A program made the translations under genes and the position numbers. Shown here in pieces: positions 370 to 39,024 of a DNA stretch of 64,000 bases. The notes under the pieces were generated by a model, which saw only the letters and a list, made by a program, of their open reading frames with translations, had not been told where the DNA came from and ran no database searches. The stretch spans positions 96,001 to 160,000 of the forward strand of contig VMGC01000001.1 in the NCBI GenBank assembly GCA_007376385.1, written 5' to 3'. This stretch comes from Parcubacteria group bacterium Gr01-1014_8. GTDB lineage: Bacteria; Patescibacteriota; Minisyncoccia; Phycocordibacterales; UBA2100. Position 1 is the first letter of the stretch, and each line of letters starts with the position of its first letter.

Positions 370-2400
370 ATGGAGTGGGGAGTCAACAACCCTTATATTT
401 CACAAGGGGATAACTATTTTGTCAAATTAAGCTGTCGATCATGCTATAGTGCGCCAGTGAAGCACTTGCATGGCTTAAATGAAAGACAAATGGAGGCAGC
501 CCTCCATACAGAAGGGCCTCTCCTCATCGTCGCGGGGGCGGGGGCTGGCAAGACAAAAACCATTACACACCGCATTGCACACCTCATGTCAAAGGGGGTA
601 TCAGGAGCAAGCATCCTCGCTGTCACATTCACTAACAAGGCTGCCGGGGAGATGAGGGGGCGCATCCGAAAACTCCTTAGCAATAGTGTCCACGAGATGC
701 CATACGTAGCTACCTTCCATTCGCTGGGGGTAAGGCTCCTCCGAGAGTTTGCAAACAAGGCTGGAATATCACGGCAATTCGTCATTTGGGATAGGGACGA
801 CAGCACACGGGCGCTAAAAAAAGTCCTAAAGGATAAGAGTCTGGATGAAAGATACAATCCAAGAGCAATCTTGAGCGTGATCTCGCGGGAGAAGGGCGAA
901 GGAAGGGTCGCCGAAACATATGGCGAAAGCACGCGGACTCCGTTTGAAAAGGCCGTTGCGGAAGCTTGGACACAGTACGAAAAGGATGCCGCAACGGAAC
1001 ATGCGCTCGATTTCGATGACCTTCTCCTACGTACGCTCTTGCTGCTGCAGAAAGATATCGATGTCTTATCCGAACTGCAACAGCGATGGTCATATATCAC
1101 TATTGACGAATACCAGGATACAAACCGCGTGCAATATGAGTTGGCACGCCTCCTTGGGGGAGCGCGGATGAATGTCTGTGCGGTCGGCGATGTCGACCAG
1201 AATATCTACAGCTGGAGAGGGGCTGATATCGCACATCTGCTTTCGTTTGAAACAACATACCCGCACACAAAGACAATTCTCCTCGAAAAAAACTACCGCT
1301 CTACGCAAACCATTCTCACGGCAGCAAACGCAGTCATAGCAAAAAATACGCGCCGCTATGCGAAGAACTTGTACACCGACAACCCGACGGGGGAGGCCAT
1401 CACCCTCTATGGCGCGCCAGATGAACGAATGGAAGCGCAGTTCGTTGTTAGGAGTGCGAGGGAACTCATGTCAAGCGGCGTGGATGCCTCCGAAATTGCG
1501 GTGCTATATCGGGAAAATTTTCAATCTCGATCTCTGGAAGAAGTGTGTATCGAGCTTGGGATCCCGTATCGCGTGCTCGGAGTGCGCTTCTTTGAACGCA
1601 CTGAAGTGAAAGATTTGCTTTCGTATCTGCGTGCTGCACTAAATCCAGCAAGTCGGATGGATATTTCACGCATCATAGCCTCGCCGCCTCGCGGCATCGG
1701 CAAGCAGACATTAGAAAAGCTATTTTCCGGAAATGAGACGCTGCTGCAGGCCAGCGCTCGCGCAAAAATATTGGTTTTTCGCACACTACTCTCGAAGATA
1801 CGGGAAAAAATCGAAACAGCAAGCGCTTCCAAGGCCGTGCACTTTGCCTTCATCGAGAGCGGACTCGAAAAACATTTTAAGGAAGGGGACGAAGAAGACA
1901 GAGAGCGGTTCAACAACGCTCGGGAACTCGTCTCACTCGCAACAAAATATGATGCGCTCCCAGCGCCCCTTGGCATCGAACATTTGCTTGAGGACGCTGC
2001 GCTTATGAGCGAACAGGATTCTCTTGATCCAGCTCTTTCCGGGGGCAAAACTAAACAGAGCGCGATATCACTCATGACCGTTCATGCTTCAAAAGGGTTA
2101 GAATTCGACGCAGTATTCATAACTGGCCTCGAACAAGGTCTTTTCCCATCGATGCACGAATCAGACGACAGGGACCCGGAAGAGGAGCGGCGTTTATTTT
2201 ATGTTGCGCTCACTCGGGCACGAAAACACCTTTTCCTCTCGTACGCGGCAAGCAGATTAAAATATGGCTCTCGCGAATATACGATGCCTTCAGAGTTTCT
2301 CGAAGATATTGATACCCGGCTTTTTGCTCCAGCACCAAGCCCATTTGTGCATCGAAAACGCGGGCTTCTCGACACCTGGAGTGAAGACGCTATTACATGA
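370..2400 (+). CDS. ATP-dependent DNA helicase, UvrD/PcrA (SF1) family
   Basis: All SF1 motifs readable: GAGAGKTKT (Walker A), TFTNKAAGEM, DEYQDTN, VGDVDQNIYSWRGA, NYRST, TVHASKGLEFDAVFI, VALTRARKHLFLSY. Confidence 0.9.
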   Translation: MEWGVNNPYISQGDNYFVKLSCRSCYSAPVKHLHGLNERQMEAALHTEGPLLIVAGAGAGKTKTITHRIAHLMSKGVSGASILAVTFTNKAAGEMRGRIRKLLSNSVHEMPYVATFHSLGVRLLREFANKAGISRQFVIWDRDDSTRALKKVLKDKSLDERYNPRAILSVISREKGEGRVAETYGESTRTPFEKAVAEAWTQYEKDAATEHALDFDDLLLRTLLLLQKDIDVLSELQQRWSYITIDEYQDTNRVQYELARLLGGARMNVCAVGDVDQNIYSWRGADIAHLLSFETTYPHTKTILLEKNYRSTQTILTAANAVIAKNTRRYAKNLYTDNPTGEAITLYGAPDERMEAQFVVRSARELMSSGVDASEIAVLYRENFQSRSLEEVCIELGIPYRVLGVRFFERTEVKDLLSYLRAALNPASRMDISRIIASPPRGIGKQTLEKLFSGNETLLQASARAKILVFRTLLSKIREKIETASASKAVHFAFIESGLEKHFKEGDEEDRERFNNARELVSLATKYDALPAPLGIEHLLEDAALMSEQDSLDPALSGGKTKQSAISLMTVHASKGLEFDAVFITGLEQGLFPSMHESDDRDPEEERRLFYVALTRARKHLFLSYAASRLKYGSREYTMPSEFLEDIDTRLFAPAPSPFVHRKRGLLDTWSEDAIT

Positions 2401-3200
2401 TACGAAACATCAAGAGAAAAGGAGCGCGGCTGGGACAACATTTTCTCAAATCGTCCTCCGTTGCGGCAGCCCTCGCCGACAGCGCACACATAGCGAACAA
2501 TGATACGGTTTTAGAAATAGGACCTGGCACAGGTGCCTTAACAGGAGAATTATTGCGGCGCGGCGCGCGTATCGTCGCAGTTGAAAAGGATGAGGCATTG
2601 GCTCACATACTAGGGACAACATTCAAAAATTCCCTCGCGAATGGCGCTCTCACCATTGTTGTCGATGATATCCGCAATGTCACACCAGAATCTCTACAAC
2701 TTTCGGAGGGACAATACATACTTGCTGCAAATATCCCGTACTACATCACCGGAGAAATTATCCGGCAATTTCTGTCAGCACACTCACAGCCAAAGACAAT
2801 GGCGCTCCTTATACAAAAAGAGGTCGCTGAGCGGATCGCGAAAAGTAAAAAGGAGAGCATTCTTTCTCTATCTGTAAAAGTGTATGGAATTCCGCACCTT
2901 GCTAAAGCCGTCGGGCGCGGCAATTTTTCCCCGCCTCCGTCGGTCGATTCTGCTATCCTCGCTATCACTGATATTTCACGAGCAAATTTTAAACACATGT
3001 CCGAAGAACAATTTTTCCGTACGGTACGTGCCGGCTTCGCCTCCAAGAGAAAAGTGCTCCGAGCAAACCTTGCCAAAATCTCGTCCGCCCCACGCGTCGA
3101 ACATGCATTTTCCGTCTGCAACCTTCCATTCAATGTTCGTGCGGAAGACGTGCCACTTCAATCATGGCTCGAACTTGCAAAAGCGATTGAACACGACTGA
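2397..3200 (+). CDS. rsmA: 16S rRNA (adenine1518/1519-N6)-dimethyltransferase RsmA/KsgA
   Basis: GQHFLKS, LEIGPGTGALT SAM motif, NIPYYITGEI. 4-bp ATGA overlap with upstream helicase stop. Confidence 0.9.
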   Translation: MIRNIKRKGARLGQHFLKSSSVAAALADSAHIANNDTVLEIGPGTGALTGELLRRGARIVAVEKDEALAHILGTTFKNSLANGALTIVVDDIRNVTPESLQLSEGQYILAANIPYYITGEIIRQFLSAHSQPKTMALLIQKEVAERIAKSKKESILSLSVKVYGIPHLAKAVGRGNFSPPPSVDSAILAITDISRANFKHMSEEQFFRTVRAGFASKRKVLRANLAKISSAPRVEHAFSVCNLPFNVRAEDVPLQSWLELAKAIEHD

Positions 3201-4145
3201 TTACCGTCCCGGCGTGGGAGACGCTTTATCTATCCAGTCTGACGCAGTGTCGGTGTCTCTTGTCGGCAAGCTTCTTGCCATTGAGTGCCCGTCAGGTACA
3301 ACAGGAACCGACGGACTGAACGCATTCGTGTTCGTGCCCCACGACGCTGCATCTGCGGGCGATGCAGAAATTGAACTGCGAATTCGTACCACATCTCCTC
3401 CATTCGTGAGTCCATTTCCGATGGAGCTACCTAGTATTACGACAACAGTGTCCGAAGGAATATTCCATTTATTCTTTGTATTTTCATTTGCGACAATGAG
3501 CATGTATTTTCCGGGCGCAAGCGTTGTGTTACTTGGCAGAGTATCGGAACCTCCTGCATTTTGGATGATCCAGCCTGAAAGATTTACCGTATTCCCAGTG
3601 CCGTTGTACAACTCCACCCATTCATTATCAGGATCGTCTCCATGTGCCCAGTCGACATCGTAGTAAATTTCATTGATCACAAGCTTCGGTGTCTCCGGAG
3701 GCGGCACAGGACTTGGCGATGGAGAGGGAGATGGCGAAGGTGACGGACTCGGGCCTGGGCTTGGACTTGGTGATGGATTTGGCGGCGGCCTGTATGCTGG
3801 CGCAGCCGGACCGCTCGAGCCCATCATCATTATGGAAATAGCAGGCTGCACATAAATGGGACTGACGGACCACAAGCAGTCATATGGAATACCCGTTAAC
3901 CCTAATAGCCACTGTCCTACATTGCGCGGCGGTCCGAACTGGTACGTTCTTGTCGAGCGCGTCCACACATAATCTCCGGGGACTGGCGGTGAGAGCCTTG
4001 TAAAAATTGTTTCGTTGTAGCAGACGTGATAGACCGTGATGCGCCCGCCGAACGGAAATGCAAGCGCGGGGGCGCTGAACAGCGCCCAGAAAAGCAGAGA
4101 CATCAATATGAACAAGGAAAGCTTCGACGCTAAAGCCATATGCAT
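3201..4145 (-). CDS. Secreted protein with PSPSPS low-complexity linker and C-terminal lamin-tail-domain (LTD)-like fold
   Basis: N-terminal signal/TM (LSLFILMSLLFWALFSAPALA), (PS)n repeat, VINEIYYD...EWVELYNGTGNTVNLSGWII LTD-like signature. Confidence 0.6.
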   Translation of the reverse strand: MHMALASKLSLFILMSLLFWALFSAPALAFPFGGRITVYHVCYNETIFTRLSPPVPGDYVWTRSTRTYQFGPPRNVGQWLLGLTGIPYDCLWSVSPIYVQPAISIMMMGSSGPAAPAYRPPPNPSPSPSPGPSPSPSPSPSPSPSPVPPPETPKLVINEIYYDVDWAHGDDPDNEWVELYNGTGNTVNLSGWIIQNAGGSDTLPSNTTLAPGKYMLIVANENTKNKWNIPSDTVVVILGSSIGNGLTNGGDVVRIRSSISASPADAASWGTNTNAFSPSVPVVPDGHSMARSLPTRDTDTASDWIDKASPTPGR

Positions 4146-4283
4146 AGTCTAGCATCCACAAAATTACTCGATGCTCTACGCCGTGAGATAGGTGTAGATA
4201 TCGCTCTAAGCGAGTTTAACCGCGTCACAACAAAAAACTGTATATAACAAAACCTCACCTATATCTCATGGGGTATAATAGTT

Positions 4284-5180
4284 GTGCATATGCATTGGAT
4301 GGTCGCGCATATATATGTGACCGCACTCGTCGTTGTCGGACTTCTCCTCATCGCAGGTACCGCCCTCGTCACATCACGAACGCCTGTCGGCTCATCCCAA
4401 TCAGAAACAACGTGGGGAGGTGCAGGAGGCATCGCATTTTTGAATGCAATCGGGGGAAGAGCTGGTTCTTCACAAGGCCGCATAAAAACACAGCAACTGC
4501 TGGAACAGCAAGCGCAAGATCATACGCCAGTGAGCATCATACCCACAGATGGATCTGAAATATCACAGGGATATGCCGACATCGAATGGCAGTCGCTCCT
4601 CACACAACTGGTAAGACCGAAATCGACAACAGATGAAGTTGCGACAGAACCGGACGGGACTCCGAGCCTCTATTCTTTCATCCCAAGCGGTCTCATGAGT
4701 ACGACCGGTTCTGCGAAACAAAGAACGCCAGCGCAAGATGAGCTTTTCGAGTACGGAAACAGCGTCGGTTCATATATCCAAGGCTTTGATGATCTGCATG
4801 GGAACATGATACAAGTTTTGAAGGACGCATATGAAGATAGAAAAGATCCAGAAAAAATTGCACGCGCGATGCAAATAGGGGCAGATTATGTTCAATTGGG
4901 AAAAGAACTCGAAGAAATGGAAGTTGGACCTAAAGTGGTGCGATCAGCTCATCTTGCTCTTGCAAAAGCGTACCAGGTCGCGGGTTCGAATATGATCGCG
5001 AAGATGAAAACATCGAGCGACGAAGATTTCATTGCGGCAGTGAACACGTACAATCAGAGCGTCGAGGACTTTACAAAACGCTACATCGCACTCGTCACCA
5101 TATTTGAAGTGGCAGAGGTTCAATTCAGCCAAGACGATCCAGGAAAAGTATTCATGTTTCAGTCCGCACCGTCCCTCTAG
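4284..5180 (+). CDS. Hypothetical membrane-anchored protein
   Basis: Long ORF, N-terminal TM helix (VTALVVVGLLLIAGTALV), tataat just upstream. Confidence 0.5.
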   Translation: MHMHWMVAHIYVTALVVVGLLLIAGTALVTSRTPVGSSQSETTWGGAGGIAFLNAIGGRAGSSQGRIKTQQLLEQQAQDHTPVSIIPTDGSEISQGYADIEWQSLLTQLVRPKSTTDEVATEPDGTPSLYSFIPSGLMSTTGSAKQRTPAQDELFEYGNSVGSYIQGFDDLHGNMIQVLKDAYEDRKDPEKIARAMQIGADYVQLGKELEEMEVGPKVVRSAHLALAKAYQVAGSNMIAKMKTSSDEDFIAAVNTYNQSVEDFTKRYIALVTIFEVAEVQFSQDDPGKVFMFQSAPSL

Positions 5181-5215
5181 CCAAAGACACGCGAAAGCGC
5201 TGGTATAATTCAAGC

Positions 5216-6055
5216 GTGGAAGGCGGAAGACCATCCTCCATTGTTATTACTGCCGGGCTTGCGGCAGCGATTTTGCTTTCCGCCATCGGCTGGCAGCTCG
5301 GCGGATACTGGGCCAAACATCACGTCGTAAAAAAACCAATTCAATTTGATAGAGCGCCAGATGAGACATCGAAAGCGCCCGTCATCGGCTCGATAAGCAA
5401 CGACTGGCGCGATGAGTTAGCGAGACTCGGACTAGTAAATACCACGACGGACGCAGCCGTTGCGACCTCCTCGGATCCACTCGCGACATTTGGCGATACC
5501 ATTGCTCAAGAATTCCTTACCACCTACCTGTCACTCAAACAATACGGCAGCTATTCCCCGGAAAAAGCTGCGCAACTAGGCAAAGCGCTCGGAAGTAATG
5601 CTCATGTTCCGACAAATTTCACATTACACGCAAGCAGCGAGCTGACCCTTGCTTCCGATACGTCAAAGGAGCGTATCTTGAAATATCGAAGCGAAATGCG
5701 AGATGCCTTACGCATGTTGGTAAATGGCTCGCCGCCAGAATTCGAAACATTGGCGCTCTATATTGAGACAAAAAACCCCGAGCGTCTCATTGAACTCTCG
5801 GAAGCGGCCGAACGCTATCGAGATGCGGAGAAAAATGCCCTCGCCGTGGTCGTGCCAAGCGATGCTGCTGAGCTTCACATCCGGGTCGTTAATGCGCTCG
5901 GTGCATATGGAAGCGCAGTGGATCAACTTGTCCGCAGTATGGCGAGCCCCGTCACCACTTTAGCGGTTTTGAGAACGTATAATGAGGCTGAGCGCGAAAT
6001 GCTCTACGCATTTGACGCGCTTGCTAGCTATTATGTACGAAAGAGTAGTCAGTAA
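5216..6055 (+). CDS. Hypothetical membrane-anchored protein
   Basis: Long ORF with N-terminal TM (ITAGLAAAILLSAIGW), tataat -10 near 5203. Confidence 0.5.
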   Translation: MEGGRPSSIVITAGLAAAILLSAIGWQLGGYWAKHHVVKKPIQFDRAPDETSKAPVIGSISNDWRDELARLGLVNTTTDAAVATSSDPLATFGDTIAQEFLTTYLSLKQYGSYSPEKAAQLGKALGSNAHVPTNFTLHASSELTLASDTSKERILKYRSEMRDALRMLVNGSPPEFETLALYIETKNPERLIELSEAAERYRDAEKNALAVVVPSDAAELHIRVVNALGAYGSAVDQLVRSMASPVTTLAVLRTYNEAEREMLYAFDALASYYVRKSSQ

Positions 6056-7697
6056 TTTTTACGGTGCCGCATTGCTGCTTCTTCTTGTAGCAATGATCTT
6101 TGGTTTTGACCTTCCGAATGCCCATGCCGCAGAATGCCGAGACGGAAAACTCTATGAAAAACTCGCCGACGGCACTGAAGTTCAAGCGGGCACGTGTGCA
6201 GACGGCAAAGATGTACCCGCATCCCAAAATGCACTTTTAAGAGACGGCATCTTTGGATGCAATGCGAGCAAATACGCAAACATCGGCACACTTTCTGCAG
6301 TTGGCGGCATCTATGTACCGGTCAACGACGCCGCGGTGACCATCAACACTGGTTATTTGGTTTACAAAGAGTGTATTCTCGACGGGGTTGTTTCAAAAAT
6401 AAGCGAAGCGGCCCGCACCGAGCTTGCAGGCACCATTATTCGCCAAATCAATACCGGCCGTGCGGGGCAAGCTCTCTTTGTAAAAAATATCGCGAAAGAA
6501 TTGGACGCACGCGCTGACAGGGTTGCCCTCACGGCTGTAGACAACGCGAATATCGGGGTGATGTGCCCGGCATTTCGCGATGATGTTCGTCGTATTCAGA
6601 TCCGCCGCTACTTGTCCGCCCGCAACTCTCCTAACTCCAGCTTTGCCTGCTCGGTTCCCGTTTCGGCAACAGACCATATAACTGCAATTCGCGCTGGGAT
6701 ATACGCGCCCGACGTACTCGATGCGCTCATCACGCCGGGAAATGACCCGTACACGGCTGATATGATCTTCAACGAATATATGAACGCTTCGATAGCAGAA
6801 GACGCCTATAACCAATATGCGCAGTGGGGATGGGGAAACGGCTTCTACCCGGTGACAACCGAAACAGATAATCCATTCGATGAAGAAACAATGACACCGG
6901 GCCATCTCGTCGCTCAAGGCGCCGCGCAGGTCATCACCGGCGGTTTTCGTTGTCTTGAAGAGGCAGACGAGCCGAGCAAAATATGCGGACCGATGTTCAA
7001 CGCGCTCGCTCAAGCAGCTCTTGACCGCGGTCTCACAGGATTAACACAGGCGCAGAACGGCTTGCCCTCGTATGTAAGCCGCATGGTGTCTGAAGCATCC
7101 GCTGCCGTTCGTCAAGAAGCGGTGAACGCCGCGCTCAATATACTCCTCACATCGAGGCAGATAGAAGCGGCGTACAAACGCGCAAAAGAGGGAATAGCGG
7201 AAGTTTTGACGGGGGCTATAAACAGACTTCGGAGTGCAGAACGAGCTTGTTGGGAGCTCATCATTCCTAAGGTAGAAGAATACGCGAGCACGCAAGGCGC
7301 CCAAATACAGGTCGCAACGACCACCGAATTCTCCCAGGCAGTCATCAACGACCAAATATTGCCCATCGCAGAGTTGGTCGCAGCAGACTTGCAAAAAGCA
7401 GAAAGGGCACTGCAGCAAATTGATAGCCTGATCGCGAGCGTATCGAATAGCGCATCTGCAACAAACCAGAGGGCCGCCCTTGAGCGGCTTGACACCATGG
7501 TCGCAAACGGCCAGCTTCACACTTCGAGTGATGCGACGAACGCTAATAAGCAATTAGAGGATGTGACTGCAAGCGCGAACACTCTCGTTGAAGAGACATT
7601 ACGGGCGTGGGGCGACTCAACTGACCCAAATGTCGGCTGGTGCAACGTGAACAACCCCGCCGTCATCGAGAAGTGGTTCAACAAATGGAAGAAATAA
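6030..7697 (+). CDS. Large secreted hypothetical protein (T4SS-locus associated)
   Basis: Signal peptide AALLLLLVAMIFGFDLPNAHA, Cys-containing N-terminal part, 555 aa. Start chosen at internal Met 6030 to give the signal peptide. Confidence 0.5.
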   Translation: MMYERVVSNFYGAALLLLLVAMIFGFDLPNAHAAECRDGKLYEKLADGTEVQAGTCADGKDVPASQNALLRDGIFGCNASKYANIGTLSAVGGIYVPVNDAAVTINTGYLVYKECILDGVVSKISEAARTELAGTIIRQINTGRAGQALFVKNIAKELDARADRVALTAVDNANIGVMCPAFRDDVRRIQIRRYLSARNSPNSSFACSVPVSATDHITAIRAGIYAPDVLDALITPGNDPYTADMIFNEYMNASIAEDAYNQYAQWGWGNGFYPVTTETDNPFDEETMTPGHLVAQGAAQVITGGFRCLEEADEPSKICGPMFNALAQAALDRGLTGLTQAQNGLPSYVSRMVSEASAAVRQEAVNAALNILLTSRQIEAAYKRAKEGIAEVLTGAINRLRSAERACWELIIPKVEEYASTQGAQIQVATTTEFSQAVINDQILPIAELVAADLQKAERALQQIDSLIASVSNSASATNQRAALERLDTMVANGQLHTSSDATNANKQLEDVTASANTLVEETLRAWGDSTDPNVGWCNVNNPAVIEKWFNKWKK

Positions 7698-10797: not shown

Positions 10798-11298
10798 ATG
10801 CAATTTCAAGTACCCCAATTTATTGAGGTCGAGGATAAGATATTCGGTCCACTCACCTTTAAGCAATTCGTCTATGTCGCAGGAGGCGGCGGATTGGCCT
10901 ACCTCATCTGGCGGGTACTCCCCATCTATCTCGCGGCGCCGCTCGTCGCAGGCTCCCTTGGTCTCGGAGCAGCCCTCGCTTTTATGCAGTACAACGGGCG
11001 CCCCTTCATTCTCGCTCTTGAGCACGGCTTTTATTTTTTTCTGCGTTCGAAACTCTACTTATGGAATAATCAGCGGCGAAACAAGAAGCTGGCGGCGTCT
11101 GCAAACGAGCAACATCAACAGACACCAGAAATTTATGTGCCGAAGCTGTCGGAGAGCAGGTTGCACGAACTTGCGTGGAGCCTCGACATCAAGGAGCGGA
11201 TCGCTGCTGGTGTTGCGAATGAGGATGATAGAAATGAAATGCCTCGTTCCCGGCTCGTTGCTCCTATTCGAACCGCCCGCAGCGCTTTAGTGCAATAA
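10798..11298 (+). CDS. PrgI-family protein (VirB3-like) of Gram-positive-type T4SS
   Basis: MQFQVPQFIEVEDKIFGPLTFKQFVYVAGGGGLAYLI...MQYNGRPFILALEHGFYFFLRSKLYLW: N-terminal VP..ED.IFG.LT.RQF motif, two TM helices, NG.P...Y pattern. Position directly before VirB4. Confidence 0.6.
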   Translation: MQFQVPQFIEVEDKIFGPLTFKQFVYVAGGGGLAYLIWRVLPIYLAAPLVAGSLGLGAALAFMQYNGRPFILALEHGFYFFLRSKLYLWNNQRRNKKLAASANEQHQQTPEIYVPKLSESRLHELAWSLDIKERIAAGVANEDDRNEMPRSRLVAPIRTARSALVQ

Positions 11299-11304
11299 TA
11301 GAGT

Positions 11305-11976
11305 ATGTCAGAGATCACATCATCAATACCGCGCGTGAGCAGCAAAGCAACCCAAGATTTTGTGCCCGTGCATGAAGTTCGGGATGGCGTCGTTGTCCTC
11401 AAAGATGGAGGCCTTCGAGCAATACTCCTAGCCTCGTCATTGAACTTCGCACTGAAATCCGAGGACGAGCAAACCGCATTTATCGTTCAATTCCAGAATT
11501 TTCTCAACTCACTGGATTTTTCCGTACAGATATTCGTGCAATCACGAATGCTCGACATACGCCCCTACATCGCCACCTTGGAGTCACAGTTCAAACAACA
11601 ATTGGACGACCTTATGCGCATACAGATACGCGAATACATCGGCTTCATAAAAAGCTTCACTGAAGCCGCTAACATCATGACGAAGAATTTCTTTATCATC
11701 GTGCCGTACTCGCCCGCGATCATCCAAACCGGTCAAGGAATACTCGGCAAATTGCCCTTTACCGGCAAAAAGAAAAATTCTGAAGAAGAGAACCGCACTT
11801 TTGAAGAACAAATATCGCAGCTCGAGCAGCGCATCTCCATCGTCCAGCAGGGGCTCATCCGCACCGGCGTCCGCACCGTCCAGCTTGGAACTGAGGAAGC
11901 GATAGAATTGATGTACAAAATGTTCAACCCCGGTGAAGAAGGGAAGCCAATGGCCGTTCCTGAATCGCAAAAATAG
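11305..11976 (+). CDS. VirB4 (TraE/Orf16-type) N-terminal domain, encoded as a separate ORF
   Basis: VRDGVVVLKDGGLRAILLASSLNFALKSEDEQTAFIVQFQNFLNSLDFSVQIFVQ...KNFFIIVPY matches the characteristic N-terminus of Gram-positive VirB4 homologues. Ends TAG at 11974-11976, one nt before the ATG of the ATPase ORF. Confidence 0.55.
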   Translation: MSEITSSIPRVSSKATQDFVPVHEVRDGVVVLKDGGLRAILLASSLNFALKSEDEQTAFIVQFQNFLNSLDFSVQIFVQSRMLDIRPYIATLESQFKQQLDDLMRIQIREYIGFIKSFTEAANIMTKNFFIIVPYSPAIIQTGQGILGKLPFTGKKKNSEEENRTFEEQISQLEQRISIVQQGLIRTGVRTVQLGTEEAIELMYKMFNPGEEGKPMAVPESQK

Positions 11977-11977
11977 T

Positions 11978-13969
11978 ATGGCGCTCCTCGATCTATTCAA
12001 GAAAAAAGGGCCGCAGTCCGTAGTCTTGCCCGTATTGCCTGAAGAGATATTCCGCACGGGAGTTCTTGACCTTCAAGACGTCATCGCACCTCACGCTCTC
12101 CGCATTTCACCTCGCGAACTCGACCTTGGGGAAAAGATCGCACGCACATTCTTCGTTATCTCGTATCCGCGTTTTCTTACGACAGGATGGTTCGCGCCCA
12201 TCATTAACATGGATAAAATAATCGACATTTCGATATTCATTCACCCGATGGATACGAATGAAATGCTTCGAAAATTCCAAAAGAAAGTGGCAGAGGTTCA
12301 GAGCCAGATATCAACGCGGGAAGGGAAGGGCATGGTCAGAGACCCTATGCTTGACACCGCCTACGCTGACCTTGAAAAATTGCGTGATTCACTCCAGCAA
12401 GCACAGGAGCGCATCTTTGAAGTAGGATTGTATCTCACCATTTACGGCTCCACTCGCGAAGAAGTTGATAAGATAGAAAGCGAGGTACGCTCAATTCTTG
12501 AATCGCGCCTTGTGTATATCCGTCCCGCGCTATTCCAGCAAGAGCAAGGCTTCAGAAGCGTTCTGCCGACGGCAACCGATGAACTGAATGTGCACACAAA
12601 ATTGAATTCAGCCCCTCTTTCATCGGTATTTCCGTTCATTTCCTTCGACCTGACGTCCGACCGGGGAATTCTATATGGCATAAACCGCCATAATTCATCT
12701 CTCATTCTTTTTGATCGCTTCTCGCTTGAGAACTACAATTCAGTGACCTTTGCCAAGTCCGGTGCGGGAAAATCCTACACGACAAAACTTGAGATCCTGC
12801 GTTCGTTGATGTTCGATACAGAAGTCATCGTCATCGACCCCGAACGTGAATACGAATATCTCGCAGAGACGGTCGGCGGACGTTATTTCAATATCTCACT
12901 CTCCTCGGAGCACCACATCAATCCCTTTGACTTGCCGATACCGCGAGAAGATGAGAACCCCGGGGATGTGCTGCGCAACAATATCATCACGCTTGTCGGA
13001 CTTTTCCGTATCATGCTCGGAGGTTTGACGCCCGAAGAAGACGCCATCATCGACAAGGCCATCACCGAAACGTATGCCCTGAAAGACATCACGCAAGATG
13101 CGAATTTCGCAGCAGTCGAGCCGCCGCTTCTTTCCGACTTCGAACTCGTACTCTCCGGCATGGAGGGCAGCGATTCACTGGTTCAGAGACTCTCGAAATA
13201 TACAAAGGGCACGTGGTCAGGATTTATGAACCGCCCGACGAACGTTGACATGAATAAAAAATTGGTCGTCTTCTCGGTGCGAGACATGGAGGACGACCTG
13301 AAACCTGTCGCTATGTACATCATCACGCACCACATCTGGAATACCGTGCGAAAGGAACTCCGTAAACGACTCCTGGTGATCGATGAGGCATGGTGGATGA
13401 TGCGTTCCCAAGATACTGCGTCTTTCCTGTTTTCAATCGCAAAACGTGGACGTAAATACTATCTTGGAATCTCTACCATCACGCAAGACGTATCAGACTT
13501 TTTGAACTCCCCGTATGGAATACCGATGATAACCAACTCTTCTATCCAGCTCCTGCTCCGCCAATCGCCAACATCGGTCGACCTCGTGCAACAGACATTC
13601 AAATTGTCAGACGAGGAAAAATACCTGCTCTTGGAATCCGATGTAGGTGAAGGCATTTTCTTCGCAGGGCTGAAGCACGTAGCCATAAAAGTCATTGCTT
13701 CGTATACGGAAGACCAAATAATCACGTCCGACCCATCGCAGATACTTGCCATCCGCAAAGCGAAACAGGAACTGGTCTTGGCAAACGAGCCACAGAATGT
13801 AGCCCAGACGACCCCGATATCTCAAACCAAGGAAGCGGCCGCTATACTCCAAAGCTCGGCGTTAAAACCCGCTGAAGTGCCAAATACGCCAACGCCGCAG
13901 GCATCACCAACATCCGCGCCAAATACTACCCGACAAGTAGCATCAATTTTGGAGAGACCGGGTAATTGA
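11978..13969 (+). CDS. VirB4-family T4SS ATPase (ATPase domain ORF)
   Basis: Walker A FAKSGAGKSYTTK, Walker B RLLVIDEAWWMM, conserved YPRFLTTGWFAPII segment. Start taken at MALLDLF (11978), immediately after the upstream ORF stop. Confidence 0.85.
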   Translation: MALLDLFKKKGPQSVVLPVLPEEIFRTGVLDLQDVIAPHALRISPRELDLGEKIARTFFVISYPRFLTTGWFAPIINMDKIIDISIFIHPMDTNEMLRKFQKKVAEVQSQISTREGKGMVRDPMLDTAYADLEKLRDSLQQAQERIFEVGLYLTIYGSTREEVDKIESEVRSILESRLVYIRPALFQQEQGFRSVLPTATDELNVHTKLNSAPLSSVFPFISFDLTSDRGILYGINRHNSSLILFDRFSLENYNSVTFAKSGAGKSYTTKLEILRSLMFDTEVIVIDPEREYEYLAETVGGRYFNISLSSEHHINPFDLPIPREDENPGDVLRNNIITLVGLFRIMLGGLTPEEDAIIDKAITETYALKDITQDANFAAVEPPLLSDFELVLSGMEGSDSLVQRLSKYTKGTWSGFMNRPTNVDMNKKLVVFSVRDMEDDLKPVAMYIITHHIWNTVRKELRKRLLVIDEAWWMMRSQDTASFLFSIAKRGRKYYLGISTITQDVSDFLNSPYGIPMITNSSIQLLLRQSPTSVDLVQQTFKLSDEEKYLLLESDVGEGIFFAGLKHVAIKVIASYTEDQIITSDPSQILAIRKAKQELVLANEPQNVAQTTPISQTKEAAAILQSSALKPAEVPNTPTPQASPTSAPNTTRQVASILERPGN

Positions 13970-14027
13970 CCTCCAAAACATACTGAAGCTAAGGATTAAC
14001 ATCAGACGTTGAAAAACGACTCAATTC

Positions 14028-14468
14028 ATGGATGAAAATCCTCTAGACCAGGTACCAAGTGACGAGGTCGCTGAGTTATCGGTCATGGATCCGCAAGAGG
14101 AGCCTGACTTTCCATTCGTCATCGTGGCAACGGCCGTTCTAAAAGACCTGCTAGACGGATTGGATCTATCTATCATCTTCATAATCCTGACGACTGTATT
14201 ATCCGTTCTGCTGACAATAATTTTGTTCCTATGGGTTGTCGGTAAATTGGGTGGCGGCTGGTGGAAGCGGCAGTTAATAAGATGGTTGTGGACTCGGTAC
14301 GTAGCAACAATTCTTTTAGAATTTATCCCGTTTCTCAAGATGGTACCAGCGGCCACAATTTTCGTTCTCATGGCCCATCACCACGAGAAAAAATCTGTGA
14401 AATTATTCAATGCAGCCTTGGAAGCCTTCCGCGACGGATTATTCAAGGCGCTGCGACAAAAAAACTGA
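14028..14468 (+). CDS. Small polytopic membrane protein (T4SS-locus associated)
   Basis: 3-4 hydrophobic helices, acidic N-terminus. Confidence 0.45.
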   Translation: MDENPLDQVPSDEVAELSVMDPQEEPDFPFVIVATAVLKDLLDGLDLSIIFIILTTVLSVLLTIILFLWVVGKLGGGWWKRQLIRWLWTRYVATILLEFIPFLKMVPAATIFVLMAHHHEKKSVKLFNAALEAFRDGLFKALRQKN

Positions 14469-14569
14469 ACGCCTGAAGGGACCCCCTGGTGGCTGCAGAT
14501 CGTTTGCCAATTGCCTGGAATTCACCGCCCTAACATGCAAAACAAATAAGGGATGAAGTCGGCTGTATA

Positions 14570-15619
14570 ATGATGCCAATGTCATCGCGGTTGTTCTTCA
14601 GTATTCCGGCGTTCGCTCTTTTGTTACTTTTTGCTGCGCCCGTATACGCACAATACATCCTTCCTCCTTCTGCTGACCCAATATTATTCAAGCTTAGTCC
14701 TTCGAATCCCGAGCCCGGCTCAATCGTCCATATTTTTGCAAATAGTCTGACATTTGACCTCAAAAAGACTCACGTAACATGGTACGTAAATGACGCTCTG
14801 CTACTTGAAGGCGACGGTCTTACGGAAGTTGATGTGACGCTTGGCTCAACAGGTTCTGCAACTCACGTCATTGCTCTCGCTGAGAAAGACGGCGAGACGC
14901 TGGCCAGCGCAGAAGTATTCATGCGCCCCGCAGAAGTTGATCTCTTGTGGGAAGCGAATTCATATGTTCCCCCCTTCTATAAGGGGAAACATCTCGCTTC
15001 ACCAAATTCGGTAGTTCGTGCAGAAGCCTATGCGCGATTGCGCGATCAAGAGGGAAATCTGATACTGCCTTCCGAAATCGAGTATACATGGCACCGTAAC
15101 GGCGCACTGCTCGCGTCCCAATCCGGCCGAGGGAAATCTTACGCCTCTTTCCCTGCTCCGCTCCTATTCGGAAGCGACACAATATCAGTCGAGGTAACCT
15201 CGATAGATGAGAGTGTGAGTGCTAGCGCGACAACTATTATTCCCTCCGTGGACCCATTTGTCGTCCTCTATCAGGAACATCCTCTGTTTGGGATCTTTTA
15301 TCACGCAGCTGTTGCACGTGCTGCATTCCTGCCAGACGTCGAAGCGACGTTCGTTGCCATTCCATATTTTGCGAGCAGCATCACGAGCCACTCCGACGCA
15401 AGACTATTATATGCCTGGCGCGTGAACGACAGGCCAATAACAGTGGATGGAGCAGAGCCTCATCGCTTGACCATCAATGCTGAAAATTCAACGGGAGAAG
15501 CGCACGTCGAAGTCGCTGTTTCGCACCTCACTAACTACTTTATGGACGCTCGCGGAGCGTGGGACATAGCATTCGACAGAATACCGGGCGGGGACCCATT
15601 CTCCACAAACGGACTATGA
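14570..15619 (+). CDS. Secreted hypothetical protein
   Basis: Signal peptide MMPMSSRLFFSIPAFALLLLFAAPVYAQ. Stop overlaps next start (ATGA). Confidence 0.5.
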   Translation: MMPMSSRLFFSIPAFALLLLFAAPVYAQYILPPSADPILFKLSPSNPEPGSIVHIFANSLTFDLKKTHVTWYVNDALLLEGDGLTEVDVTLGSTGSATHVIALAEKDGETLASAEVFMRPAEVDLLWEANSYVPPFYKGKHLASPNSVVRAEAYARLRDQEGNLILPSEIEYTWHRNGALLASQSGRGKSYASFPAPLLFGSDTISVEVTSIDESVSASATTIIPSVDPFVVLYQEHPLFGIFYHAAVARAAFLPDVEATFVAIPYFASSITSHSDARLLYAWRVNDRPITVDGAEPHRLTINAENSTGEAHVEVAVSHLTNYFMDARGAWDIAFDRIPGGDPFSTNGL

Positions 15620-16980
15620 TTCATACGGATATTTCCCGCATATTCAAGTACGCAAGTATCGGGCTCATCTTCGTTCTTATTATAGGGCTTGGCGGATGGT
15701 ACATATACTTGCGCACGCAAACATCATCAATTGACGCGGCGTCAAGCGGACGCGGGTTCCGCGCGAGCATTCCCACTTCAAGTTCGCTGGGGAGTACTTT
15801 CACCAACATAATTTCCGGATTCAGAAGAACCCCCAGTGAAGCGAGCGAAAATCCGCCAGGAATAAGCCCGCAAAGCTTTTCGAGTGGTATTTCTAACTTT
15901 TCCGAAGGCGTAAAAACTGCGTTCGGTAACTTGATATCAGGACTCGGCTCCCTCGTCCCTGGTTCCGCAAGCTCAACGCCGATAAAACAAACCCCTCGTC
16001 TTTGGCAGGTGCAAAAAAGCCCCGTCGCTGGATTCAGGTTCATCGCTGCAACAACGACAACGCTTCGCTTTATGGAACGCTCAAGCGGCTATATTTTCGA
16101 CGTGAACCCGGCGACAGGGAAAACAACGCGAGTAACAAATACTCTTATCCCGAAAGTATATGATGCACGGTTCGCCAGGGACGGTTCTCCGGTTATAAAA
16201 ACTCTTGAAAACGACGTGCGGACAACCTATAGCGCGACATTAGCATCAAGTTCGAACGAAACTCTTGCCACACTCGTTCTAACGCCGCTAGGAAATAACG
16301 TGGCAGATGCAGTACCAAACGCTACATCACGCGAGCTTCTCTCGCTCATCGAAAGTGAGAATGGATCCTCTATTGTGCGCTCAGGATGGAACGGCTCTAA
16401 ACCAACGACGCTCTTTAGCTCATCGCTCTCGGGATGGAGAATGTACTGGACCTATGACAACAAGGTCTACATCGCGCAAAAAGCGGCGACAGGAGTCCCA
16501 GGTAACGCGTACGAACTTCTTGGCAATGGAGAACTTGTTCCACTAGCGCGTTCTGTTTCGGGGCTCACGATAGTGCCAAAAGCAACTTCTACTGCTCTGC
16601 TTATTGCTTCTGATGCTGGCGTTGTGTCTACCCTTGTCAGGCCAAATGCTGACACAGCGTTCATAATACTACCCGTGAAGACGATAGTCGACAAATGTCT
16701 ATGGGCTCCAGGAAATAATCTGATCGCGTATTGCGCAGTGCCATCGAGCATTCCTTCAAAACAATTCTTGGATGAGTGGTATCGAGGGGAGATACATACG
16801 GCTGACTCGTGGTGGCGCGTTGACGCGAGCGCAGGCTCGGCGCAATTGCTGTTTTCGCCCGCGCGCGAGAGCGGCTCTTCGCTTGATGCGGAAACCCCGA
16901 GAATAGACAATAGCGGGACGTACATAGCATTCCTCGATTCACATGACAAGTCACTGTGGATACTGCGCATCAATGAATAG
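15616..16980 (+). CDS. Membrane-anchored hypothetical protein, possibly beta-propeller-like
   Basis: Start MIHTD with ATGA overlap, single N-terminal TM (IGLIFVLIIGLGGWYIYL), Ser/Thr-rich linker, long extracytoplasmic domain. Confidence 0.5.
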   Translation: MIHTDISRIFKYASIGLIFVLIIGLGGWYIYLRTQTSSIDAASSGRGFRASIPTSSSLGSTFTNIISGFRRTPSEASENPPGISPQSFSSGISNFSEGVKTAFGNLISGLGSLVPGSASSTPIKQTPRLWQVQKSPVAGFRFIAATTTTLRFMERSSGYIFDVNPATGKTTRVTNTLIPKVYDARFARDGSPVIKTLENDVRTTYSATLASSSNETLATLVLTPLGNNVADAVPNATSRELLSLIESENGSSIVRSGWNGSKPTTLFSSSLSGWRMYWTYDNKVYIAQKAATGVPGNAYELLGNGELVPLARSVSGLTIVPKATSTALLIASDAGVVSTLVRPNADTAFIILPVKTIVDKCLWAPGNNLIAYCAVPSSIPSKQFLDEWYRGEIHTADSWWRVDASAGSAQLLFSPARESGSSLDAETPRIDNSGTYIAFLDSHDKSLWILRINE

Positions 16981-16982
16981 CC

Positions 16983-17138
16983 ATGAAAAAAGTTGCATCT
17001 AAGGTGCGCAGCGCGCGGAAGACGTTCGCATTTATCTCCCTTTCCGGCCTGAATGGTCCGGAATTCGCTCCGTTCCTCACCGCCGCGTTCAATAGCCAGA
17101 ATTTTCCCACATTCGTGAACGCTCTCTTTAAGGGTTGA
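16983..17138 (+). CDS. Small ORF (51 aa) carrying repeat copy 1, paralogue of 17590..17871
   Basis: MKKVASKVRSARKTFAFISLSGLNGPEFAPFLTAAFNSQNFPTFVNALFKG. ATG 2 nt after upstream stop. Confidence 0.3.
   Translation: MKKVASKVRSARKTFAFISLSGLNGPEFAPFLTAAFNSQNFPTFVNALFKG
17035..17133. repeat. Perfect 99-bp direct repeat, copy 1
   Basis: tctccctttccggcctgaatggtccggaattcgctccgttcctcaccgccgcgttcaatagccagaattttcccacattcgtgaacgctctctttaagg, identical at 17645-17743. Confidence 0.9.
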
Positions 17139-17589
17139 ACATTGTGGGCAGGATGAAGCCACTTCCTGCCGCTCCGAGGCTTCCTACGAGCACCGCGCCT
17201 GCGGAAAGCACTTTTACCCCGCCAGACCCGGATCAAACTGTGGTCGCCCCCGTGAATAGCAACGTTGATCGATGGTGTACAACATCAAGTTCTGGAGGAG
17301 CCACACTATGTTTTACCGGGCCTCAAGCGCAGCGAAATTGCAACGCGCAATACGCATCAAGAGGCATCGATAGGCAGTGCACGTCCTTCCCAGCTCAATA
17401 AAGGTTCCTCGGAGCAAGCTCTGAGGTATTGAACCTGTGTTTGCGCATATTGCCCATTTAAAAATAATCATACATCGCTAGAGATGCCCTGCACTCGCGA
17501 TATAATAGAACTGCAGACAACTATAGTGCCTTGCTGCCAGACATTACGACATGCGTAAAGATATGTGTTCGCGACCTGCCTCGCGTACA

Positions 17590-17871
17590 ATGAAAAAAAT
17601 ATTGTCCAAGTTTCGGGAGCTGCCTCACGCGTTCCAGGGTTTCGTCTCCCTTTCCGGCCTGAATGGTCCGGAATTCGCTCCGTTCCTCACCGCCGCGTTC
17701 AATAGCCAGAATTTTCCCACATTCGTGAACGCTCTCTTTAAGGAACAATTCACGCAACCGCCTGCACAGAATTCGTTCTTCGGAGGAGCAGGCGGACAAT
17801 TTGATCCTTCGCTCAATGGAGTTGGCGTCTCAGGTAATGAAATAGGGAACCCAAACCCATCATCACCGTAG
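17590..17871 (+). CDS. Small ORF (93 aa) carrying repeat copy 2, Gly/Pro/Asn-rich C-terminal tail
   Basis: MKKILSKFRELPHAFQGFVSLSGLNGPEFAPFLTAAFNSQNFPTFVNALFKEQF... tataat-like at ~17503. Confidence 0.35.
   Translation: MKKILSKFRELPHAFQGFVSLSGLNGPEFAPFLTAAFNSQNFPTFVNALFKEQFTQPPAQNSFFGGAGGQFDPSLNGVGVSGNEIGNPNPSSP
17645..17743. repeat. Perfect 99-bp direct repeat, copy 2
   Basis: Identical to 17035-17133, flanks diverge immediately outside. Confidence 0.9.
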
Positions 17872-17872
17872 T

Positions 17873-18376
17873 TTATACATCGCTCGTATATCTAATCACG
17901 ACTCGTCGACTGCGTCCCTCCCCTTGTGATTCTGTTTTAACGTTCGGAGAATCTGCGAGCGTCGTGTGCACAATGAGGCGCTCATAGGCACTCATGGGAG
18001 AGAGCTCCACATCGTATTGAAATGAACGAGCTCGTTCTGCCATCATCAAGGCTTTCGCCTGCAAGTCCTTTATCTGTTTTGAACGATAGTCATTTACGTC
18101 CACCAAAAAATGAGTCTCGTTTGAATTTTCATCAGGTGCGATCGGGACAGTGCGATTGCCCATGAGTCGCTTTTCGACTATTTTTTTTACCAGCTGATCT
18201 ATCGCATGTACCGTATCTCCGTGCATCCCGATAAGGGAGCGCGCATCGTCCGCCTGGATAGCAAATACCGATTGCCCGGCTATTTCTTCGTACTTGACAC
18301 CGGAGTACGCCGCACCCATCGCTGAAAGCGTCTCTTTTAGGACTGATCCGACGATCTCATTGAGCTCAGACTTCAT
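17873..18376 (-). CDS. jag: Jag/KhpB-like RNA-binding protein (KH + R3H domains)
   Basis: C-terminal R3H signature LSPMSAYERLIVHTTL...GEGRSRRVVI. Downstream of yidC in the conserved rpmH-rnpA-yidC-jag order. Confidence 0.8.
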   Translation of the reverse strand: MKSELNEIVGSVLKETLSAMGAAYSGVKYEEIAGQSVFAIQADDARSLIGMHGDTVHAIDQLVKKIVEKRLMGNRTVPIAPDENSNETHFLVDVNDYRSKQIKDLQAKALMMAERARSFQYDVELSPMSAYERLIVHTTLADSPNVKTESQGEGRSRRVVIRYTSDV

Positions 18377-38777: not shown

Positions 38778-38848
38778 CCCCTGGTAGCTCAATGGTAGAG
38801 CAGCTGCCTTTTAAGCAGTTGACGGAGGTCCGATTCCTCCCCGGGGGA
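38778..38848 (+). tRNA. tRNA-Lys (anticodon TTT)
   Basis: Cloverleaf folds by hand: acceptor cccctgg/ccggggg, D arm gctc-aatggta-gagc, anticodon arm gctgc-cttttaa-gcagt, T arm ggagg-tccgatt-cctcc. Closely resembles E. coli tRNA-Lys. Confidence 0.7.
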
Positions 38849-39024
38849 AAGTTTTTTAAACTTCACACGGGAGAAGCGTGCAATGCACGCTTCGTGAAGA
38901 ATCGGACGCCGGAGCGATGTTTTGTCAGCAGACAAAACCGCGAGGCGGTGCCCAGACAAACTTTTGCGACGGCAAAAGTTTAGTCGCGGGAGATTCCTCC
39001 CCGGGGGAAAGTTTTTTAAACTTT
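38849..39024 (+). other. tRNA-linked structured element copy 1: ~145-nt hairpin-rich segment closed by a 33-bp direct duplicate of the tRNA-Lys 3' end
   Basis: Direct repeat gattcctccccgggggaaagttttttaaactt at 38832-38864 and 38992-39024. Internal conserved motifs acgccggagcgatgt, accgcgaggcggtgcccagac, agtcgcgggaga shared with copy 2. Confidence 0.6.

Follow-up and report, generated by a model that had tools for sequence, protein, structure and literature searches.

Two copies of a 99-bp sequence lie at the edge of a T4SS locus in the MAG Parcubacteria group bacterium Gr01-1014_8, at positions 17035-17133 and 17645-17743 of a 64-kb stretch of DNA (hereafter called the window). Each copy sits in a short ORF. 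The sequence-only reading of this DNA took the two ORFs for a pair of small paralogous genes and explained their shared segment by very recent gene conversion or by selection on the nucleotide sequence itself. It also allowed that the repeat might be an assembly duplication artefact. The question is whether the repeat belongs to the organism or to its assembly. In the present study, the case was built by comparing contigs with contigs rather than by read mapping. We consider it very probable, from these comparisons, that the 99-bp feature as described is an assembly artefact overlying a tandem pair of VirB2-like pilin genes.

The repeat and its T4SS locus in the window

The two copies were 100% identical over 99 nt, and a comparable match appeared in 0 of 100 shuffles. 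The pair was the sole exact repeat of at least 33 nt in the window, which contained zero Ns; the next longest exact repeat measured 32 nt. This 32-nt direct repeat (38832-38863 and 38992-39023) was, apart from the 99-mer, the only exact repeat of at least 25 nt. Its first copy overlaps the 3' end of tRNA-Lys (38778-38848), and an integrating element could have left such a duplication of the tRNA end.

ORF1 spans 16983-17138 (51 aa) and ORF2 spans 17590-17871 (93 aa, or 106 aa when read from the start at 17551). As the sequence-only reading had noted, both copies lie in frame and encode one identical peptide of 32 aa, SLSGLNGPEFAPFLTAAFNSQNFPTFVNALFK. ORF2 is the deposited protein G01um10148_106, annotated as 'hypothetical protein', and an exact protein look-up of ORF1 returned no record. 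The bases directly 5' of the copies differ (A at 17034 and G at 17644), as do the bases directly 3' (G at 17134 and A at 17744). On the plus strand, copy 1 is preceded by a specific 5' end, A1 (16983-17034), which encodes MKKVASKVRSARKTFAF and ends one base into the following codon; the corresponding 5' end of copy 2, A2 (17590-17644), encodes MKKILSKFRELPHAFQGF and likewise ends one base into a codon. Copy 1 is followed on the same strand by a 53-nt segment, L1 (17134-17186), coding for the linker (E)LNIVGRMKPLPAAPRLP, and by a Cys-rich tail with its stop codon (17187-17401). The ORF holding this tail (17135-17401) is open through 88 codons. A plus-strand spacer (17402-17589) then leads to A2 and contains a promoter-like site at 17479-17506 (TAGAGA-16-TATAAT), predicted by consensus match (10 of 12 positions). 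Copy 2 is followed by T2 (17744-17871, plus strand), a Gly/Pro/Asn-rich tail with its stop codon.

The T4SS core genes are located on the plus strand at 10798-13969. They comprise a PrgI/VirB3-like gene (10798-11298; Pfam PrgI, E=5.4e-10), a 223-aa gene whose ENA product is marked PF26593 (TraC-like) in precomputed Pfam, and a VirB4-type ATPase (11933-13969; Pfam TraG P-loop, E=1.5e-23). Further conserved genes of 146, 348 and 454 aa lie 5' of the site. The 454-aa gene (15616-16980, plus strand) is directly upstream and served as a synteny anchor. Its longest ORF starts at GTG 15559, and the product recorded in other assemblies begins at ATG 15616, a start codon that shares bases with the stop of the preceding gene (ATGA). 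That preceding gene is 348 aa on record, not 349, and an exact look-up of the 349-aa start variant returned no record. The downstream anchor is the Jag/R3H gene on the minus strand (17873-18376; Pfam R3H, E=2.4e-15). The genes jag (R3H), yidC, rnpA and rpmH converge on the site from downstream, followed by dnaA and dnaN; yidC sits two genes from the pilin locus. ORF1 and ORF2 are linked to T4SS genes (VirB4 and PrgI/VirB3), as expected of PF18895 pilins. Upstream of the T4SS locus, the minus strand carries a 314-aa lamin tail domain protein (3201-4145; PF00932, E=6e-16).

The pilin slot in relatives

The slot between the 454-aa gene and jag was matched in the relatives L001, L007 and L008, and the orthologues of the 454-aa gene upstream of the pilin measured 445-477 aa in L001 and L008. 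All four relatives read (4/4: L001, L007, L008 and L009) had one intact gene in the slot, counted from the 445-477-aa gene to jag. This gene was P0002 in L001, P0003 in L007, and P0004 in both L008 and L009. Pattern scans of genome contigs and of metagenome contigs yielded one relative each (L006, which is L001, and L007). In the slot gene, an ORF2-like start and the repeat peptide were followed by a hydrophobic hairpin of two helices, then by a linker (NIVGRIKPLPAAP) and by a tail that varied. Two further features of the locus in L001 (GCA_964373725.1) were observed. VirB4 (3314-7024) has 1,236 aa and carries an intein (Intein_splicing and LAGLIDADG_3), unlike the window VirB4 (11933-13969), and the PrgI/VirB3-like and TraC-like genes (1922-3129) are oriented opposite to virB4, to be compared with window 10798-11976.

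The gathering score of PF18895 (T4SS_pilin) is 26.6 bits. P0003 (29.9 bits), P0004 (29.8 bits) and P0012 (38.5 bits) passed this cut-off, and P0002 (23.7 bits) fell just under it. In an AlphaFold2 model of P0003, helices were predicted at residues 42-74 and 78-108 with a pLDDT of 80-91. A Foldseek search of the model against the PDB gave no match at E<=0.001, a bare helical hairpin being a non-discriminating query. The hairpin was kept in 26/26 close homologues. The full HMMER search returned 3,172 family members, and among the best 150 ORF2 was the sole protein noted as hairpin-less.

The window presented a different picture. The maximal Kyte-Doolittle 19-residue means of three window ORFs were 0.92, 0.85 and 0.15, compared with 2.12 for P0003, and no hydrophobic segment was detected in ORF1 or ORF2 (19-residue mean <=0.92). 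Searching all six frames of the 64 kb with tblastn and a family HMM revealed no hairpin-coding sequence. ORF1 and ORF2 gave zero PF18895 matches in Pfam at E<=1, because the hairpin is dropped from both copies. With a profile built from the 26 intact relatives, they matched at positions 2-52 only (E about 1e-15). These results indicated that the two ORFs are indeed paralogous and do belong to the T4SS locus, as pieces of VirB2-like pilin genes of the PF18895 family. The small genes of 51 and 93 aa proposed from the sequence are not real; they are pilin-gene pieces that lack the hairpin.

Alignment with L007 located the missing parts. The A2 region showed 84% nucleotide identity to L007 778-929, and in the protein alignment A2 proved orthologous to the N-terminal part of the relatives' single gene. 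L1 was 87% identical to L007. At the first join, J1 (17134-17135, plus strand), L007 has 188 nt where the window has 1. Copy 1 thus lacks approximately 187 nt of pilin-hairpin coding sequence between the repeat and the linker, and the linker and the Cys-rich tail are shifted to another frame as a result (ORF 17135-17401). The same join yields the frameshift and the TGA stop of ORF1. In copy 2, the hairpin and the linker are absent, and the repeat abuts a tail resembling that of L007 at the second join, J2 (17743-17744, plus strand). The likeness of T2 to the tail of the L007 orthologue (QNSF..DPSL.G.G) had a score reached in 0/300 shuffles. Both apparent deletions begin at the last base of the repeat. 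A search with the fused gene-1 protein found no homologue of the Cys-rich tail and no intact gene-1-type paralogue.

The N-termini of the family were also compared. Some pilin-family members have a classical hydrophobic signal peptide ending in A-x-A|Q. In the window clade, by contrast, the N-terminus (16983-17034 and 17590-17644) is short, basic and non-hydrophobic, and FQGFVSLSG comes next; this suggests a different route of membrane insertion or processing.

The L007 orthologue also bears on the proposal that the identity of the 99-mer is kept by a function of its nucleotide sequence as an RNA or DNA element. Perfect identity would be expected of such an element, and the minus strand folded slightly better than shuffled sequence (z = -1.96, with 9/200 shuffles folding as well). 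This did not amount to significance on either strand, the plus strand giving z = -0.94. Rfam, run over the whole window at gathering thresholds and over 16800-18000 at E<=10, reported only tRNAs and noise. Moreover, the 99-mer differed from L007 at 19 nt, of which 18 were third codon positions and only 1 altered an amino acid. Since the differences between orthologues are almost all synonymous, the segment is constrained as protein and not as RNA or DNA, and nucleotide-level selection is scarcely credible as the cause of the identity.

The two joins in independent assemblies

Independent assemblies of the same sequence were located by exact-protein look-ups of the flanking genes. The first was ENA ERZ27284378, which has MEGAHIT-style contig names and k=139, and the second was Logan SRR8863434, with k=31. 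The 454-aa protein had an exact copy on ENA k139_153431 and on Logan SRR8863434_8352, and the Jag/R3H protein had exact copies on ENA and Logan contigs as well.

ENA k139_153431 was 100.000% identical to window 11616-17134 (5,519 nt). Beyond 17134, this contig reads AGCTATTTCCATCGGCGCTATTATTGCGGTTCTGCAGCT, i.e. …FKGAISIGAIIAVLQ, the first hairpin helix. The repeat peptide is thus followed by a T4SS pilin's membrane hairpin (…KGAISIGAIIAVLQ…), and the contig breaks off exactly 139 nt from the repeat's first base. From the other side, ENA k139_338890 was 100.000% identical to window 21376-17744 (3,633 nt). The repeat is not what this contig carries upstream of 17744; the sequence there is HIMRDAMVGLLLLMGIWLILRQINPQLLE-LNIVGRMKPLPAAPRLP-SSASPGM-QQFTQPPAQ…. 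The order on this contig is HIMRDAMVGLLLLMGIWLILRQINPQLLE (the second hairpin helix), the LNIVGRMKPLPAAPRLP linker, SSASPGM and the ORF2 tail (QQFTQPPAQNSFF…SSP and stop). Its linker comprises 53 nt identical to window 17134-17186, followed by 21 nt that are absent from the window, and its first 139 nt end exactly at window 17186.

The Logan contigs were in agreement. The left contig (SRR8863434_8352) ends 30 nt into the repeat. The right contig (SRR8863434_177951) is 100% identical to the window down to 17744, and upstream of that base it carries the 21 nt and L1 instead of the repeat. It leads from jag across the ORF2 tail and the additional 21 nt to the linker, of which it contains the last 30 nt before stopping. 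A1 was 100% identical in both independent assemblies and was clearly diverged from A2 in a nucleotide alignment. The joins 17134|17135 and 17743|17744 were absent from both assemblies, with 0 mismatches in the flanks. Position 17134 was crossed without a branch by the k139 contig, and 17744 was crossed without a branch by both downstream contigs. The artefact that the sequence-only reading had allowed for is what these contigs revealed. With the 26-relative profile, the ENA fragments matched positions 2-64 and 86-129, which left only 21 profile positions uncovered; the fragments alone gave no PF18895 match in Pfam.

The positions of the contig ends were informative. The length of the stub changed with k: it was 99 nt in the window, against 30 nt in the k=31 contigs and 139 nt in those with k=139. 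The contigs broke off precisely k or k-1 nt within a segment whose left limit is 17035/17645 and whose right limit is 17186. This pattern implies that two different sequences enter the segment on the left (A1 and A2) and two leave it on the right (17187 onwards, and the 21 nt plus T2), which makes it a repeat of more than 139 nt. Judged against L007, the shared segment is approximately 339 nt long, and the recovered ends leave a central part of approximately 61 nt. The divergence of the flanks, described earlier as immediate on both sides, holds for the bases in the window; the 3' boundary was made by the assembler, and the real shared segment includes the membrane hairpin.

It was also considered that the window is true for its strain. 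Two tandem pilin genes would then each have lost the hairpin by deletion and become pseudogenes or soluble derivatives, the 99 bp would be a conversion tract, and the other assemblies would represent a sister strain whose genes are intact. This explanation fitted the data until the independent assemblies were found. The lack of any hairpin-coding sequence in 64 kb agrees with it, as do the 88 open codons of the gene-1 tail ORF and the fact that conversion would reach no further than homology. However, it requires two independent deletions from one and the same base, together with a conversion tract whose length happens to equal exactly k-1 for the assembler used. In the other assemblies, the flanks match the window at 100% over 5.5 and 3.6 kb and show no branch at the joins, and ORF2 stands alone in lacking the hairpin among the best 150 of the 3,172 family members. 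The reading as two decayed pseudogenes with a conversion tract was dropped once the ENA and Logan contigs contradicted both joins, and we regard it as very unlikely.

An assembly artefact would account for the arrangement in the following way. The default largest k of idba_ud (maxk) is 100, which makes contig ends overlap by 99 nt, and in idba scaffolding a negative distance estimate between two contigs leads to trimming of the second. The apparent repeat length of 99 nt equals k-1 at this maxk. SRR8863434 is cited among the runs of PRJNA512237, the BioProject of an Ohio groundwater study (PMC11549363, PMC6730927), and the source papers describe assembly and scaffolding of the Ohio groundwater sample by idba_ud with default parameters. 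The name of the MAG fits 'Greene, 0.1-um filter, October 2014'. With a core longer than k, idba_ud at a default largest k of 100 would have been unable to thread the repeat, and each contig entering it would have ended in a stub of k-1 = 99 nt. Scaffolding would then have abutted these stub-ended contigs to the contigs leaving the repeat, dropping the rest of the core. The outcome would be a 99-bp perfect repeat with seemingly divergent 3' flanks and two hairpin-less small ORFs. The exact length of 99 nt, the perfect identity and the cutting of both ORFs at the same base would all follow because both copies (17035-17133 and 17645-17743) are k-1 stubs of an idba_ud contig, each representing the first 99 nt of the core. 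On the right-hand side of the joins, the window retains 53 nt of the repeat at J1, not 99, and at J2 it resumes 21 nt past the repeat. Trimming of the downstream contigs by 46 nt and 120 nt would fit the negative-distance rule.

Compared with collapsed-repeat misassembly in metagenomes built from de Bruijn graphs, the present case has the same hallmarks. The stub is k-1 of the assembler named in the source papers, it changes with k, the joins are unsupported elsewhere, and the dropped part is the interior of a repeat longer than k. Such misassembly usually leaves a tandem k-1 duplication or Ns, whereas here the contigs were abutted without Ns. The presumed trimming of the downstream contigs by 46 and 120 nt also differs from the usual artefact.

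The probable tandem pilin genes and known pilin systems

Two VirB2-like T4SS pilin genes most likely lie in tandem in this organism, flanked by the 454-aa gene and jag. The linear order would be the 454-aa gene, A1, core, tail 1, spacer, A2, core, the 21 nt, T2 and jag. It is the only simple linear order, because the linker, tail 1, spacer, A2 and start of the repeat are contiguous in window 17135-17743 itself. The arrangement A1-core-tail1-spacer-A2-core-tail2 is thus a probable one that draws on graph logic and on the contiguity of 17135-17743. Gene 1 would consist of A1, the core and the Cys-rich tail (419 + 187 = 606 nt, approximately 201 aa). Gene 2 would consist of A2, the core, seven codons and the Gly/Pro/Asn tail (282 + 261 = 543 nt, approximately 180 aa); the approximately 261 nt missing at J2 would be the remaining approximately 240 nt of core plus the 21 nt (GTTCAGCAAGCCCGGGAATGC). 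As an independent check, adding approximately 187 nt at J1 and approximately 261 nt at J2 brought both genes in frame. The approximately 339 nt of the core would encode the peptide before the hairpin, the membrane hairpin with its two helices, and a short linker. Both recovered ends of the core read the same in the two copies, and the central approximately 61 nt are presumably identical as well. By its N-terminus and tail, gene 2 is judged to be the orthologue of the single gene in relatives. Gene 1 is an additional paralogue, its leader divergent and its tail rich in Cys.

An identical core between diverged ends points to recent gene conversion or recombination between the pilin paralogues. 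The recent homogenisation proposed in the sequence-only reading is to that extent borne out, and the tract is not 99 bp. Likewise, the 99-bp identity is exact in the window without being the true arrangement in the organism. The differing termini may vary the pilus surface. A further idea is that the pair combines a constant core with variable ends, in which gene conversion keeps an identical core of approximately 113 aa between unrelated N-terminal leaders and C-terminal tails, and recombination at the 339-nt repeats shuffles the surface tails or changes their copy number during host adaptation; we consider this unlikely.

The repeats could also act as a recombination cassette, deleting or amplifying pilin genes or swapping N-termini and tails, and so generating pilin variation within the population. 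Direct repeats of approximately 339 nt are good substrates for RecA. The contigs break at the repeat in every assembly, the relatives read have one gene rather than two, and CPR bacteria commonly have variable VirB2 arrays in tandem (bioRxiv 10.1101/2025.01.22.634366). Against this, the recombinant joins A1-core-T2 and A2-core-tail1 were not seen, the repeat alone accounts for the contig breaks, and Pfam scans detected no recombinase gene adjoining the pilin locus. We judge a cassette of this kind to be very unlikely.

For users of the genome, the deposited 93-aa protein G01um10148_106 would be a truncated pilin, and the genome would wrongly seem to be pilin-less at this T4SS locus. When a repeat in a MAG measures exactly k-1 and its flanks diverge at once, other assemblies should be compared before a biological reading is given. 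The biology that remains is modest, namely a dnaA-adjacent CPR T4SS locus with probably two VirB2-like paralogues that share an identical core.

The probable tandem VirB2-like pair is of a kind known in CPR bacteria. A T4SS locus adjoining dnaA has been reported for CPR bacteria; its VirB2-like pilins (PF18895) frequently form tandem arrays, with a reported within-array identity of 25% on average and 54% at most (bioRxiv 10.1101/2025.01.22.634366). As in those loci, the protein here is small with a two-helix hydrophobic hairpin, two tandem paralogues probably lie at the edge of the VirB4/PrgI locus beside dnaA, and intact orthologues of the window gene pass the Pfam threshold. The window clade differs in having no hydrophobic signal peptide. 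The surveyed CPR pilin arrays are at most 54% identical, whereas the pair here would share an identical core of approximately 113 aa in proteins of 180-201 aa, which is far more alike than in the CPR arrays surveyed so far. As cited in the same preprint, Bartonella and Anaplasma have paralogous families of VirB2 pilins; these too are tandem paralogues, thought in that account to vary the exposed surface. They belong to a different T4SS class and to bacteria with different hosts, and any antigenic variation by the pair described here would be hypothetical.
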